From assembly GCA_950072105.1 (NCBI GenBank), contig CATMOE010000026.1, forward strand, positions 1-48,230: 48,230 bases of DNA, read 5' to 3'. Made by a program: the position numbers and the translations under genes. The notes under the pieces are model-generated. The model was not told where the DNA came from and did no database searches. It saw only the letters and a program-made list of their open reading frames with translations. Each line of letters starts with the position of its first letter. The first letter of the stretch is position 1. The stretch is from an uncultured Dehalococcoidia bacterium. Lineage in GTDB: Bacteria; Chloroflexota; Dehalococcoidia; Lucifugimonadales; UBA3495. Below, one piece after another: positions 43,662 to 48,230 of this stretch.

Positions 43662-44222
43662 TCAGAGTTTCTTTACCGCGTCGCCTGGTCTTATCTCACC
43701 GCCCTGCACCACCTTGAGGTTTATGCCCCGCAGTTGGAGTTCTCTACCTGTCGGAGAGCTAATAAACTTCAAGGCGTCTGCGCCGAACCGGGCAGCGAAT
43801 TTCTTGCAGCCGGTGTGGGGCTGATCCGTGGCCTCCAGGATGGCTGAACCCACGGAGATGCGGGTGCCGGGGGGCACGTTGGCTTTACTCAGGTCCAGGT
43901 CCACAAACAACTGGTCGCCGGACAACGGCCAGCGGTCCTTGGATTGGGCCACCAAGGCCGCGACTCGGGAGTTCATCAAGGTGATTTGCATATCGGGGTG
44001 GGCCTTGCCGTCACCGCTGCGGACGCTGGGCCGGTCCCGCCAAGTGTCGCCCACCAAACCAACCTCAACGTGCAGGTCGGCCAGTTCCATAACCTCACGC
44101 GCGTCCTCTTCAGGACGGCTGACGATCAGGTCCAGAACGCTCCGGTCTTTTGGCGAATCGCGTATCTCATCAAGCCCGGCTTCCAAGTCGGCTGCGGACA
44201 GGTGCATTATCTCTGCTTGCAT
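43662..44222 (-). CDS. MOSC domain protein (YiiM-like)
   Basis: GLVGD.W, QITLMN, GDQLFVDLDLS..N.P.GTR..VGSA.LE.T..PHTGC.KF, RGIN.KV..GGEI.PGD. Confidence 0.85.
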   Translation of the reverse strand: MQAEIMHLSAADLEAGLDEIRDSPKDRSVLDLIVSRPEEDAREVMELADLHVEVGLVGDTWRDRPSVRSGDGKAHPDMQITLMNSRVAALVAQSKDRWPLSGDQLFVDLDLSKANVPPGTRISVGSAILEATDQPHTGCKKFAARFGADALKFISSPTGRELQLRGINLKVVQGGEIRPGDAVKKL

Positions 44223-44288
44223 GGTGTTACTCCGTGGGTAGTTTCATTGAGAGCGTTGGAAGGTAGTTTAGCATGGGGCAGGATCCCC

Positions 44289-45149
44289 CTAAACCTCGAT
44301 CCGCATCAACTCCTCAGAGAAGATGATTTGGCCGTCATATATGGCGGTCATCTCTTCAATATGACGGTCGAAGGGTGTGTCCTTGGAGAGAGTGTGGCCC
44401 ATGTGGACCAGGACCAGTTTTTTCACGCCTGCATCTTGGGCCAGTTGGGCGGCGCCGGTGGTGCCACACTGGCCGTTGGCCTCGTTGGCCGTTTCCATTA
44501 TCGACTGTTCGTCCCAGCACATACACAGCATTATGTCGGCGTCGCGGGCCAGTTCACGGACCGTGTCGCAGGGCTGGGTGTCGCCGGTGAATATCACGCT
44601 GCCCTCAGGAGTGTCTACTCGGTAGGCTAGCGAATCCAGATAGGGTTGAACGTGCTCCGCCAGAGCCGCCGTGACCTGCCAGTTCTTGCCTGAGGCCACC
44701 TCGCCCACTCCAATGTCCTTGGCATTGGGGGCGGGCGGAATGCGAGGCAGAGTGCCGCCTCGGTTCACGAAGACCTGCTGGCTGTAGGGATGGTTCACCC
44801 GTGCCTGCCAGTCGGACTCGAAGGCCCCGCCGACGCCGATGACTTTTTGCGTAATCTCCTCGGTCAGCTTCGGGCCGTAGACGTTTAATTCTGAACCGCG
44901 GCCGGCGGCCTGGTCCCAGCGGCAGAGCAGGAAGCAGGGGTAGTCGATGTTGTGGTCGAAGTGATGGTGGGTGAAGAACAGGTTATCCACCTGGGTGGGA
45001 TAGAGGCCGGCCTTGACCAACTTATGTGTGGCCGCTGGACCGCAGTCGAACATCAGTACCTCGTCGCCGATGCGCAGCGCGTGGGCGCTGCCGAACCGGA
45101 ACTCAGTGGGTGTGGGCGTGCCGCCTCCCAGGACAAATACCTCGGCCAT
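44289..45149 (-). CDS. Metallo-beta-lactamase fold hydrolase (RNase Z/AtsA-like)
   Basis: LGGGTPTP, FDCG, FFTHHHFDH, AYRVD, FTGDT, GVKKLVLVH. GGAGG RBS before ATG 45149. Confidence 0.85.
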   Translation of the reverse strand: MAEVFVLGGGTPTPTEFRFGSAHALRIGDEVLMFDCGPAATHKLVKAGLYPTQVDNLFFTHHHFDHNIDYPCFLLCRWDQAAGRGSELNVYGPKLTEEITQKVIGVGGAFESDWQARVNHPYSQQVFVNRGGTLPRIPPAPNAKDIGVGEVASGKNWQVTAALAEHVQPYLDSLAYRVDTPEGSVIFTGDTQPCDTVRELARDADIMLCMCWDEQSIMETANEANGQCGTTGAAQLAQDAGVKKLVLVHMGHTLSKDTPFDRHIEEMTAIYDGQIIFSEELMRIEV

Positions 45150-45347
45150 GTGGGACCTCCGGATCATGTTTTGCTCGAGAGAGTATAACCCACGAGCATA
45201 TCGGGGTTTCCATGGCGCGGCCCTGGCGAAAGGTTTTGTACCAGCGATACATGGGCGTTCGTTGCAGGGGGCCGGATCGCACCATGTTTGACAATCGCCA
45301 AAAGAAAAAGGCCACTACATGGACAGGGGAGCCTATCGTTAAAGATG

Positions 45348-45821
45348 TTAGGGAGTCGCGGAGAATATTTTGCCGGTTTCCAGTCTCGATACCTGGAAGA
45401 CCGGATGGCGTTGGGCCTCCGCGGCGAAGGCTTCATTGGGTGCCCCTGGCTTAGCATCAAAAAAGCGCCGGGTGAAAGGTTCTTGGTCGAAATAGCGTTT
45501 GAGCACTGGGCCGCATCGATTTGGGTCGTATTCCTCTTCCACCGTTAGGTCTTCTGAATGTCCACCCCGGCTCAATGTGATCTGCCTGGCTACTCTGGCA
45601 TTTTTGACCCAATTTCTTTGTCCGAAGGGTGCCACCAGCCAACAATGTTCGTTGATTTGCACAACGGACACAGGAGTAGAGTGGAGCCGTCCACTGAGCC
45701 GGCCCTTGACGGTGAGAATGTGGTATTTCCGGGGCGGTAGACCAAGCCGGATCCAATACCGCACGATGCGGTTTAGGATACGCCTAGACAAAGTTAGCCG
45801 GTAGGCCGCGCTGATCTGCAT
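45348..45821 (-). CDS. Deazaflavin (F420)-dependent nitroreductase family protein (Ddn/DUF385-like)
   Basis: LTVKGRLSG...TPV, LVAP.G..NWVKNAR, HPVF. GAGGA RBS before ATG 45821. Confidence 0.8.
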   Translation of the reverse strand: MQISAAYRLTLSRRILNRIVRYWIRLGLPPRKYHILTVKGRLSGRLHSTPVSVVQINEHCWLVAPFGQRNWVKNARVARQITLSRGGHSEDLTVEEEYDPNRCGPVLKRYFDQEPFTRRFFDAKPGAPNEAFAAEAQRHPVFQVSRLETGKIFSATP

Positions 45822-46446
45822 TTGCCGAATCCTCGTGTATCTGCCCAGGTGGCTCACGGCTATTGCCGCGCGGGACCAACCCGGCAGCGATGGGTTCGCA
45901 TTCACATTGACGAACTATTGGGGCTAGCGGCCCATCCTTGTTAATAGTGATGGGCAATACCTCAACGACGCTGTTTGCGACACGTCCTATTAGTATATAT
46001 AAGGCGATGTCGCATTACCCCTTCTTCCGGGCTTGGCCCGTGAGGTACAAGAACTACGAGATCGAGATTGAGGGGAAGAACGCGCTGATTGAGGAAATCG
46101 AGAGTGGCTCGGCAGGTGGTACGATAGGCAACTGAGTCGGTGTGGACGCGCCTTCGACCCAATTAGGCATCGCCGTCCTCGGTGATCAAACTGGAAATGT
46201 CAGTGGATAGAGAAAGCAGAGAGGGTTTCACATTCTGGACAAATGCTATTTATATAGAGAGGGATCGTCCAGATCAGCGGATTTACCGTTGGTATCGCTA
46301 CCAGCCTTGGCTGGATCGTAGGGCCGCATTATGATTCGCTAGGCTGTGCGAAGTAAGTAGACCTACGTATATACCCTTCAATTCAAGCCTGGTAAATTGG
46401 TCTTCCCAAAGTTACAGTGGGACACTGGGCAAGCGGAGAAGATGGC

Positions 46447-46623
46447 ATGGCGGAACTGGACGAGCGGATAGAGCGGCTTGAGAGCGACCTAGTGGAAATC
46501 AAAGTGGACATCAAAAATCTACTAGTTGAATTGAAAGTGCTGATCGCGCGAGAGCAAAACCCACTCGCCGATAATACCCCAGAAGTCCGTGGGCCTGTGA
46601 TCGTAGTGGCCCCAGTCGGTTAG
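46447..46623 (+). CDS. Small coiled-coil protein (58 aa)
   Basis: GGAGAAG RBS; heptad pattern LDERIERLESDLVEIKVDIKNLLVELK followed by QNPL. Confidence 0.65.
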   Translation: MAELDERIERLESDLVEIKVDIKNLLVELKVLIAREQNPLADNTPEVRGPVIVVAPVG

Positions 46624-46699
46624 ACGGCAATAGTGAAAGTTGTTTGCCAAGGCGTCGTTTTTTGGAACTAGGAATGATTGAACGAGGTACTAATATCGA

Positions 46700-47419
46700 A
46701 TGACCACTGGCCCTAGCGCTGTCCTGGTGATGCAAAGTGACGTGGTGGGCGGTAGTTTGTTTCCCCTTCGTACTACCGATCGCTGTGTAATTGGTAGATC
46801 ATCTACCTGCGACATCGTAATCGACCTCGCCCTCGTTTCCCGCCGGCATGCCGAAGTCGTCTACCACGACCAGAGATATTTCGCTTCAGACTTGGGAAGC
46901 AGCAATGGCACACTCGTCAACGGAACGCCCCTGCTGCCCGGAAACGAAATGGCCCTGTTCCATGGAGATTTGCTCAGCTTTGCGGGCGATCAGGTGACGC
47001 TACTCTTCCAAAATACACAGGATTCCGCGCCTTTGGGCAGGACCACACTAGCCAGCCCGGATGTTAGCTCCGACGATACCGCCACGATAAGTTCTGCCAG
47101 AATCGCAGTCCACACGGCGTTAAGCATCGACTCCGATTTGAGGGAACTGAGGATCAATGACGGCCAACTACTTCACTATCTTTCAAGCGGTGAATTCGAT
47201 CTGTTGACCGTCTTGTACGAGAGGAGGGGCACCGCGGTGGCTTACGAGGAGCTCGTTGCCGCTCTCTATCCTGAGCCGATTAATCCAGATGTCGCCATCG
47301 AAGAAATAGATATCCGTATCCGGTAACTTCGGACCAGGCTTGAGCTAATACCCACTAATCCCAGGTTAATCGTCACCCTCCCGGCATACGGCTATATTCT
47401 GGTCGGGCCGCCGGCTTAG
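46700..47419 (+). pseudogene. FHA domain + OmpR-type winged-helix regulator with in-frame TAA at 47324-47326
   Basis: FHA motifs IGR..CDIVI...VSRRHA and DLGS.NGT.VNG. The wHTH LSSGEFDLL.VL...IDIRIR continues after the stop as LRTRLELIPTNPRLIVTLPAYGYIL to TAG at 47417-47419. Confidence 0.85.
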
Positions 47420-47685
47420 CTCCCTTCGTCTTGGCCCGGCTCATGGTGTTCTGCCAGGCACCAACTACCCGTCTTCATGTTCCTGAAGATCCCCAACTGG
47501 GCACCGTCCTCCACCGTCACCCGGTAGTGCATCTTGTACACTGGCTTATTCTCCCGCCACTCCGATTCTTCTTCCACCCGGTCGTCTATCGACACCACGA
47601 CCAGCGTCATCCCCTCCAGCGACACGGACGTGGCCGGAATGCTCTGTTTGAGGCGTCGGAAGTTTAGCAAAGGGTGATGAGACAT
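47416..47685 (-). CDS. DUF6504-like small protein; start uncertain, possibly degenerate
   Basis: V.SI.D...EESEW...P...MHYRV..EDG..L.IF.....G.W pattern. Confidence 0.55.
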   Translation of the reverse strand: MSHHPLLNFRRLKQSIPATSVSLEGMTLVVVSIDDRVEEESEWRENKPVYKMHYRVTVEDGAQLGIFRNMKTGSWCLAEHHEPGQDEGS

Positions 47686-47706
47686 TGCATTATGTTAAGT
47701 TTCATA

Positions 47707-47735
47707 TTTACAAATACCAACTATTATCGTATAAA
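47707..47735 (+). promoter_or_regulatory. Putative leaderless sigma70 promoter of the HTH gene
   Basis: TTTACA (47707-47712), 17-bp spacer, TATAAA (47730-47735); ATG 7 nt downstream, no SD. Confidence 0.5.
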
Positions 47736-47742
47736 TCCAAAC

Positions 47743-47985
47743 ATGAACGACGTTCAGGAATTGCTTGCCGGACTCCAATACAAGGGATGGACCTTGACCG
47801 CTATCGCCGATGAATTCGGGATTAGCCGAAACGCCGTGGACTCTTGGCGATCGGGAAAACACAACCCGAGACAGTCCGTTGTGGTGCAGAGAGAACTGAA
47901 GAGGCTGCTGGGTCGGAAGCGGATACCCAAGAGGTGGAGGACGGACAGTGCGGCACATGGTGCTAGCACCATGCTGCGAGGTTAG
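47743..47985 (+). CDS. Cro/CI-like helix-turn-helix DNA-binding protein
   Basis: GWTLTAIADEFGISRNAVDSWRSGKHNP helix-turn-helix with a basic C-terminus. Confidence 0.75.
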   Translation: MNDVQELLAGLQYKGWTLTAIADEFGISRNAVDSWRSGKHNPRQSVVVQRELKRLLGRKRIPKRWRTDSAAHGASTMLRG

Positions 47986-48087
47986 GCAACCTCTATTTTG
48001 CAATCATATAAATCTTGATACTTTAGTGCGGGTGGAAGTTCAGACTCGACGGTCATTTGCAACGGATGTTAACAAGCAGGATACAAG

Positions 48088-48230
48088 ATGTTTGCCAAGA
48101 GCTTGATTAGAGATCAGAGAGGAATCACCGGTCTTGAAACGGCCATCGTTCTCATCGCTTTCGTAGTGGTGGCTTCGGTGTTTGCTTTCGCCGTTCTGAG
48201 CACCGGATTGCTCAGCTCGGAAAAGAGCAA
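48088..48230 (+). CDS. arlB: Archaellin (archaeal-type flagellin), 5' part; truncated by the window end
   Basis: Manual translation [47 protein letters not shown]: class III signal peptide plus the archaellin N-terminal helix signature (G.TGL.TAI.LIAFV.VA.VFA..VL..G). AGGA RBS at 48078-48081. Confidence 0.9.

Follow-up and report, generated by a model that had tools for sequence, protein, structure and literature searches.

The window, a stretch of 48,230 nucleotides that is the entire contig C26 of the source assembly (G000), ends within a gene that sequence comparison confirms as a genuine archaellin (ArlB/FlaB family). We consider it probable that this arlB is a leftover: a spare subunit without a motor, one of eleven copies scattered through the genome, that builds no filament. 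The assembly comprises 4.08 Mb in 164 contigs (92% complete, 6% contamination). Assignment of the host to the phylum Chloroflexota is well supported, and the organism is likely a member of SAR202. Among the best 120 relatives of arlB there is one named protein, from a SAR202 cluster bacterium, and L104 is 88-91% identical to contig C9 of the assembly over >11 kb.

The archaellin gene at the end of the contig

Features of the 3' end of the window are as follows.

45150..48230, no strand: strain-variable island carrying the arlB module (GC, contig depth, alternative continuation)
46447..46623, + strand: gene for a 58-aa mini-ArlC-like protein, a homologue of the N-terminus of what intact clusters encode between arlB and arlG
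46700..47419, + strand: FHA and winged-helix regulator gene (FHA 76.4 bits, Trans_reg_C weak)
47416..47685, - strand: 89-aa open reading frame with four partly degenerate relatives in the genome (tblastn copies on C110, C64, C94 and C25)
47743..47985, + strand: small helix-turn-helix (HTH) gene, 80 aa, upstream of arlB and shared with the twin module
47956..47973, no strand: perfect 18-bp palindrome, candidate operator, between the HTH gene and arlB
48088..48123, + strand: class III signal-peptide leader, cleavage predicted after Gly12 (Glu+5 codon at 48136-48138)
48088..48230, + strand: 5' end of stand-alone arlB, full product predicted to be ~194 aa (PF01917, TIGR02537, P0003)
48154..48230, + strand: repeat node of 77 bases with which contig C69 also ends, without a difference; both contigs break here

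The arlB frame is opened by an ATG at 48088 (+ strand), with AGGA six bases 5' of it, and 47 residues can be read before the contig end is reached. The frame appears in a list of open reading frames only if open-ended frames are allowed. Its leader has 12 residues, including K, R, R and D, with Arg-Gly at -2/-1 and Glu at +5. The sequence-only reading had described an archaellin N-terminus here, with a basic leader, RG site, Glu at +5 and helix, and the profiles bear this out: the 47-residue fragment scores 32.5 bits on PF01917 (cut-off 29.5), the sole Pfam family matched at E<=0.1, and 35.2 bits on TIGR02537 (cut-off 20). Because both scores exceed their cut-offs, the signal is more than chance. 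The frame is absent from the 12 matches of the genome to TIGR02532 (GFxxxE type IV pilins). The Gly12 codon is intact in an independent contig (run X1), which shows zero differences over 47588-48140.

The neighbouring genes are ordinary bacterial-type genes by Pfam and NCBIfam profiles, as had been supposed. The sigma70 promoters that were thought to accompany them did not stand up to counting, as 45000-48230 gives 2 sites against 2.3 expected in shuffles, and both promoter and terminator scans of that region are at chance level.

The twin copy and the probable full-length gene

C26 and contig C69 stop at an identical base, and C69 carries a twin of the window module, with HTH gene, palindrome and arlB. 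The two modules are 73.5% identical over 600 bases, and their final 77 bases are identical; C26 ends at 48230 because the repeat there is common to the twin copy. In 6 of 6 metagenome contigs of the twin, TGA replaces the Gly-1 codon of arlB. Recoding or re-initiation at this TGA was considered and dropped, as a single base separates the codon from GGA and the twin is gathering further lesions. Five of the six contigs reach the end of the gene. One of these (L100) has a different 3' flank; in the remaining four, arlB is followed first by a mini-ArlC-like gene and next by a repeated element that resembles an insertion sequence, and no motor genes were found 3' of the twin arlB in these four.

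Contig depths in run X4 are 46.2 for the region upstream of the window copy, 92.4 upstream of the twin and 124.8 for the shared arlB body; at the 3' ends, the twin-type end has a depth of 86 and the L100-type flank one of 44.1. In run X5 the depths are 17.7-25.8 upstream of the window copy, 52.7-67.3 upstream of the twin and 13.5 for the L100-type flank. From the depths in the two runs it follows that the window copy most likely shares the twin body and ends in the L100-type flank. Probably it swapped its body with the twin by recent recombination. A degenerate pattern laid over the arlB start for contig extension recovered seven metagenome stretches, six of the twin and the window contig itself.

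A database protein of 194 aa (P0003) is identical to the window arlB over its 47 residues, and the mature part of P0003 is identical to the frame in L100 at 181 of 182 positions. P0003 scores 84 bits on PF01917 over profile positions 1-161, and all 10 of its 10 PDB matches are archaellins. The best of these is PDB 9i5h (E 3.9e-26, residues 13-191), and in the alignment of the predicted full-length protein the mature start pairs with residue 1 of that structure. The alternative of a Tad/Flp or type IV pilin, which had been named as a possible refutation, falls away as the full-length form matches archaellins only, in Pfam as in the PDB. The full window gene would then be an intact 194-aa ArlB, a composite of records of which none spans the whole copy. 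The motif GDLVDPGE in P0003 sets D, D and E opposite D127, E131 and E134 of the metal site of Litorilinea aerophila, and the loop at the D121 position of that site is shorter. The numbering of D121, D127, E131 and E134 in the alignment indicates that 9i5h is the L. aerophila filament. Four database proteins (P0001, P0002, P0003 and P0005) share the first 47 residues of the window gene while their bodies are merely 73-86% identical, a pattern that suggests exchange of bodies among archaellin copies.

Known sequence 3' of the predicted stop of the window copy amounts to 165 bases. This L100-type flank contains no arl-like frame, has no match in the source assembly and gives two 29-base matches only in 202 family genomes; the loose end of 30 bases that follows it gave no match.

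A fraction of 0.17-0.26 of the sequence words of 44000-48230 recurs in six RNA runs. Two RNA runs mapped to L100 gave contigs over the twin only (L100:1456-2416, the HTH gene and the TGA-bearing arlB). These contigs, which start 40 bases apart, are a weak hint that the twin HTH-arlB pair is transcribed, and they possibly derive from DNA.

The strain-variable island

At least half of the sequence words of 44000-48230 are present in 13 runs from 9 marine and vent studies (one may be the source). Four mapped runs tile the region with near-identical contigs, and one contig of 3,104 bases spans 45099-48183. Because independent contigs, this one included, cross the region, the join is not chimeric; the chimeric assembly against which the sequence-only reading had cautioned is ruled out, contigs from four other studies tiling 45.1-48.18 kb. 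GC content is 52.8% from 45150 to the end and 58.3% in the rest of the window. Contig depth over this part is ~0.5-0.65 of that over 44000-44930 in 4/4 runs, and an alternative continuation at 45150 was seen in all four. Thus, we infer that 45150-48230 is an island present in about half of the population. At position 46093, three of the four runs have 20 extra bases, and the assembly may miss a short repeat there (45938-46135 frame). Orthologous arlB copies lie at syntenic chromosomal sites in two other genomes of the genus (G001 and G002).

The island holds a second archaellum-related piece besides arlB, at 46447-46623, which the sequence-only reading had passed over. This mini-ArlC-like frame is the top match (E 3.7e-9) among 82,461 six-frame segments of the source assembly to a profile built from 10 cluster-borne N-termini; no Pfam family matches its product above cut-off. 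Relatives sit beside other scattered arlB copies in the three genomes of the genus and in G010, a genome of the same family that bears a motor. A family of ~60-aa coiled-coil proteins resembling the ArlCDE N-terminus (e.g., G000:C16:10984-11166 and G000:C33:32758-32937) is often found by scattered arlB genes and once inside an intact cluster (L070). The ArlCDE label for proteins that follow arlB in clusters is one that we assign by position and by PMC12488501, as there is no Pfam match.

Window and twin have the same palindrome within 600 bases that are just 73.5% alike, and at up to 2 mismatches these are its only two copies in the source assembly. A 17/18 match lies upstream of a scattered arlB in G010 (L077:2286). 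The HTH gene scores 25.2 bits on HTH_23, above the cut-off, when scored on the longer frame from 47674; its product is 82% identical to that of the twin over 56 aa. The 46700-47419 gene has an in-frame TAA at 47324-47326, and the frame runs 30 codons beyond this stop. No Pfam or NCBIfam match was found for the open reading frame at 47416..47685.

Archaellins and motor genes across the genome

The genome-wide search with the Arch_flagellin profile that the sequence-only reading had proposed returned 14 PF01917 matches in the source assembly: 11 arlB starts, the second half of a split copy on C31 and two ArlF-like genes. The scattered arlB copies lie among catabolic and housekeeping genes. None of the nine copies that lie away from contig 3' ends or have long flanks has arlGFHIJ beside it (C97 runs off its contig). 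Four of the eleven are broken (C31 split, C33 with a 3' frameshift, C67a and C69 with stops) and two more look damaged, with no Arg-Gly site in C97 and a Glu within the hydrophobic helix of C67b. Broken copies are not diagnostic of motor loss, because motor-bearing G010 has 2 broken among the 8 arlB copies examined.

The search for the remaining parts (arlF/G/H/I/J and a prepilin peptidase) had a different outcome, with no arlI, arlJ, arlG or peptidase found in the 92%-complete assembly. There is no T2SSE ATPase above cut-off, and no T2SSF, Peptidase_A24 (PF01478) or A24_N (PF06750). A tblastn search with ArlI, ArlJ, ArlG and ArlCDE of G010, G023 and G024 returned only one 82-aa P-loop scrap, and in a six-frame search with profiles of 16 ArlI, 15 ArlJ and 9 ArlG proteins nothing exceeded 17.8 bits. 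The query proteins were themselves checked, ArlI and ArlH scoring above cut-off and ArlJ and ArlG being assigned by best match. For the ArlF/ArlG pair, two dispersed ArlF-like genes (C10 and C63) and no ArlG were found. The peptidase region of G010 has no counterpart in the source assembly.

Two candidates for ArlH were not accepted. An ArlH-like KaiC domain fused to a receiver domain (G000:C18:20916-22145) reaches 128 bits against a cut-off of 194 and is remote from any arlB; it is convergent on minor type IV pilin genes. The other, a KaiC-like gene (G000:C19:50288-51030), is split into two frames. CheW is absent from the source assembly, which is uninformative because motor-bearing G010 and G023 also lack it.

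Type IV pilin N-terminal motifs number 12 in G000, 4 in G001 and 3 in G002. No pilB, pilC, pilM-O or pilD was found in G000. In G001 and G002 the type IV pilus assembly genes are gone from their site, which is closed there and falls in a contig gap in G000 (L141-L143). None of the three genomes has a bacterial-type prepilin peptidase domain; G001 has an unrelated short A24 gene.

The cluster site in the genus and the family

In family members G010, G023 and G063 the arl cluster has coxM-coxG on one side and glmS on the other; in G046 it comes just before glmS. In each of the three genomes of the genus, a single contig (G000:C35, G001:C15 and G002:C22) carries both the coxG and the glmS flank without a cluster in between. 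What remains differs: G001 retains approximately 77 codons from the end of arlJ together with the following gene, G000 only the 3' part of that following gene, and G002 almost nothing. The genus displays a deletion series at the cluster site. ArlI was found in 0/3 genomes of the genus and ArlJ in none of G000, G001 and G002, and archaellins are present in 3/3. Of the sequence-only reading, the archaellin stands; that it is the first gene of an arl cluster is not supported, as the assembly yielded no arlI, arlJ, arlG or cluster-type arlCDE and none of the three genomes has an open cluster site.

Among 150 family genomes sampled, archaellins at E<=1e-12 occur in 25 and ArlI in 15; these are drafts, so that absence means not found. 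Both are present in 13, archaellin without an ArlI match in 12 and ArlI without archaellin in 2. Two genomes (G004 and G018) retain part of the arl cluster only. Cluster loss is therefore common, given the 12 of 25 archaellin genomes without an ArlI match and these two partial clusters. In G018 the partial locus (L114, G018:C40) consists of arlB, arlCDE and arlG, then inverted frames that we take from their type of sequence to be chemotaxis-like, and arlH; no arlI was found in the genome.

Selection and phylogeny of the archaellins

Between G000 and G001 or G002, dN/dS of arlB is 0.04-0.23 in 9 of 10 pairs and 0.67 in one 46-codon pair. Flanking genes have similar values (mostly 0.03-0.3 for long true frames), and flanking proteins are mostly 85-98% alike among the three genomes. 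The low values for arlB fit recent loss, and also continued use. Paralogues of arlB on different contigs of G000 have dN/dS of 0.03-0.15 with dS of 0.8-1.7, and because of this high dS most of the paralogue selection signal predates the loss. In the dead twin (without the L100 3' end), four contigs show 5 amino-acid-changing and 3 silent variable sites, which are small numbers.

A tree of ArlB had also been proposed. From a 44-row set reduced to frames of at least 95 aa, with a midpoint root, the clade of the window copy comes out nearest the arlB that heads the second cluster of G010 and the scattered copies around it. The tree is silent on the donor, because the set has no archaeal outgroup. 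No syntenic anchor for the second-cluster site of G010 was found in the source assembly.

Origin and fate of the window copy

The reading that we consider probable begins with an ancestor that would have had one or two arl clusters and dispersed spare arlB genes, like G010 and Ca. Lucifugimonas. The motor would have been deleted recently, so that the copies keep traces of past purifying selection and may now be gaining stops and frameshifts after its loss. The window copy would be intact over its full length and would lie on an island that ~half of the population carries; its product would stay an unprocessed, membrane-anchored prepilin that forms no filament. Type IV filament systems require a prepilin peptidase, an ATPase, a platform protein and a subunit (PMC13705601). 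The expectation of an unprocessed prepilin rests on this, because all of these are needed and only the subunit was found. Several points weigh against a leftover. G000 is 92% complete in 164 contigs, dN/dS of arlB among the congeners is low like that of flanking genes, no anchor was found in G000 for the second-cluster site of G010, and the 165 known bases compare with a next gene that starts ~190-260 bases after arlB in intact clusters. The ArlH-like fusion on C18 and two ArlF-like genes remain, and ArlI of the P0158 type, described below, could belong to part of the population.

It is unlikely, in our view, that the window arlB heads an arl cluster to its right in the island-bearing half of the population, left unbinned between half-depth repeats. 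Such a cluster would suit an intact window copy beside a dead twin, an island at about half depth that also carries a mini-ArlC-like gene, and a clade nearest the arlB that heads the second cluster of G010. In addition, ArlI of the second-cluster type recurs on ~7 kb contigs. Three protein clusters of this type (P0158 with 14 members, P0160 with 8 and P0159 with 2) are 83% identical to the second-cluster ArlI of G010 and occur mostly on contigs of 2-9 kb, many of ~7 kb. They were found in none of the 202 family or 401 order genomes searched, and no host link for P0158 was found in family genomes, order genomes or viral contigs. Scaling by GlmS predicts that an ArlI of G000 would be ~79-80% identical to that of G010. 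However, P0158, P0159 and P0160 differ mutually by 11-19%, which exceeds expectation for a conserved ATPase where flanking proteins are mostly 85-98% alike; P0158-type ArlI may come from an unbinned cluster of this population or from an unrepresented relative. The mini-ArlC-like gene lies 1.5 kb before arlB here and just after the head arlB in G010, and arlI and arlJ are missing from three assemblies of the genus that were made independently. The sequence-only reading had the cluster continuing to the right. This is not what the neighbouring sequence indicates, as the twin module stands alone, with a mini-ArlC-like gene and a repeat resembling an insertion sequence after it, and the 165 bases that are all the flank known for the window copy are without an arl-like frame.

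We regard as similarly doubtful a stand-alone spare arlB whose working motor and peptidase are encoded elsewhere, on contigs of the species or some of its strains that were left unbinned, as in strain JH545 (described below). Low dN/dS, the conserved palindrome upstream of arlB and the ArlI clusters P0158, P0159 and P0160, which none of the searched genomes contains, are consistent with it, as are the contig gap at the type IV pilus assembly site of G000 and the scattered flaB genes of cluster-bearing SAR202 (PMC10444878). Nevertheless, the sole anchorable cluster site is closed in all three genomes and the pilus assembly site in G001 and G002, and searches of all three genomes gave neither ArlI nor ArlJ nor a prepilin peptidase domain of the bacterial type. 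Stops are also fixed in abundant copies, one truncated form of 162 aa making up a 34-member cluster.

We give little credence to the retention and recombination of archaellins and the 12 pilin-like genes for a role independent of a motor, for instance as uncleaved surface proteins anchored in the membrane or as phage decoys. It would account for dN/dS that is low among G000 paralogues too, and for a body identical in window and twin behind leaders and promoters that are only 73% alike. The four database proteins that share 47 first residues and 73-86% of the body could be read in the same way, and RNA-library contigs from two studies that cover the twin HTH-arlB would fit weakly. On the other hand, a paralogue dS of 0.8-1.7 makes the selection signal mostly older than the loss, four of the eleven copies are broken, variable sites in the dead twin are more often amino-acid-changing than silent (5 vs 3 on four contigs, small numbers), and the RNA signal falls on a dead copy and may be DNA. 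In its broadest form, a deep-sea SAR202 genus would have deleted both the archaellum motor and type IV pilus assembly and would keep and recombine its dozen archaellins and dozen pilins, as uncleaved proteins anchored in the membrane, for a new filament-free role such as adhesion or phage decoy, which we think very improbable; that the small HTH regulator and the 18-bp operator would control these genes is a part of the same conjecture and just as speculative.

That the archaellin is an artefact, whether through a chimeric join, through contamination by archaea or through misreading of a Tad/Flp or type IVa pilin, might be suspected from the position of the gene at a contig end, the fall in GC from 58% to 53% and the 6% contamination of the bin, and is refuted by the contigs from four other studies (one a single 3,104-base piece) and by the archaellin-only matches of the full-length form in Pfam and the PDB (10/10), with syntenic orthologues in the G001 and G002 chromosomes arguing the same way.

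Comparison with known archaella

Archaella in Chloroflexota, including SAR202, have already been published (PMC12488501; PMC10444878), as had been acknowledged. The description of them as rare and barely characterised is outdated: complete arl clusters are reported in 243 of 3,780 Chloroflexota genomes, and for Litorilinea aerophila a 2.7 A cryo-EM structure of the filament is available and swimming was shown (Sivabalasarma et al., 2025; PMC12488501). ArlI and ArlJ drive the archaellum's assembly and rotation (PMC12488501).

The ArlB of L. aerophila is the best solved relative of the window protein. The two share the same mature N-terminus and a signal peptide of class III, and the predicted full-length protein is acidic at three of the four positions of the metal site. 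In L. aerophila, ArlB is encoded in one complete locus, is processed and forms filaments with which the cells swim (PMC12488501), whereas the window copy stands alone, its predicted product has a shorter D121 loop and no assembly machinery was found.

The SAR202 strain Ca. Lucifugimonas marina JH545 has six clustered and six scattered flaB genes, and no filaments were seen on its cells (Lim et al., 2023; PMC10444878). It resembles the organism studied here in being a marine Chloroflexota of the SAR202 type and in having roughly twelve archaellin genes, several of which lie dispersed outside any cluster. Unlike it, JH545 is described as having a complete flaB x6-flaGFHIJ cluster and a candidate FlaK peptidase (PMC10444878); in the G000 assembly neither a cluster nor an ATPase, platform protein or peptidase was found, and the anchored cluster site is closed.

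Also close are the complete loci of the same family (G010, G023, G063 and others), which have the same arlB family and an ArlI above the NF058587 cut-off. G010 also shares with the window a scattered arlB with a mini-ArlC-like neighbour and the upstream palindrome (17/18). These genomes differ in that arlCDE-G-F-H-I-J are kept between coxG and glmS, which the genus of the window lacks.

Among openly accessible main texts, we found no paper on orphan or stand-alone archaellins or archaellin pseudogenes, and the available part of a preprint (bioRxiv 10.64898/2026.05.11.724246) does not discuss orphan archaellins. Bacterial archaella and dispersed SAR202 archaellins are already known, and the modest new point here is the loss side. 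If the archaellins did have a role independent of a motor, this would be the first example of archaellins that function with no filament machine. More generally, since 12 of the 25 archaellin genomes have no ArlI match and the genus displays a deletion series, counts of archaellin genes would overstate motility in SAR202.
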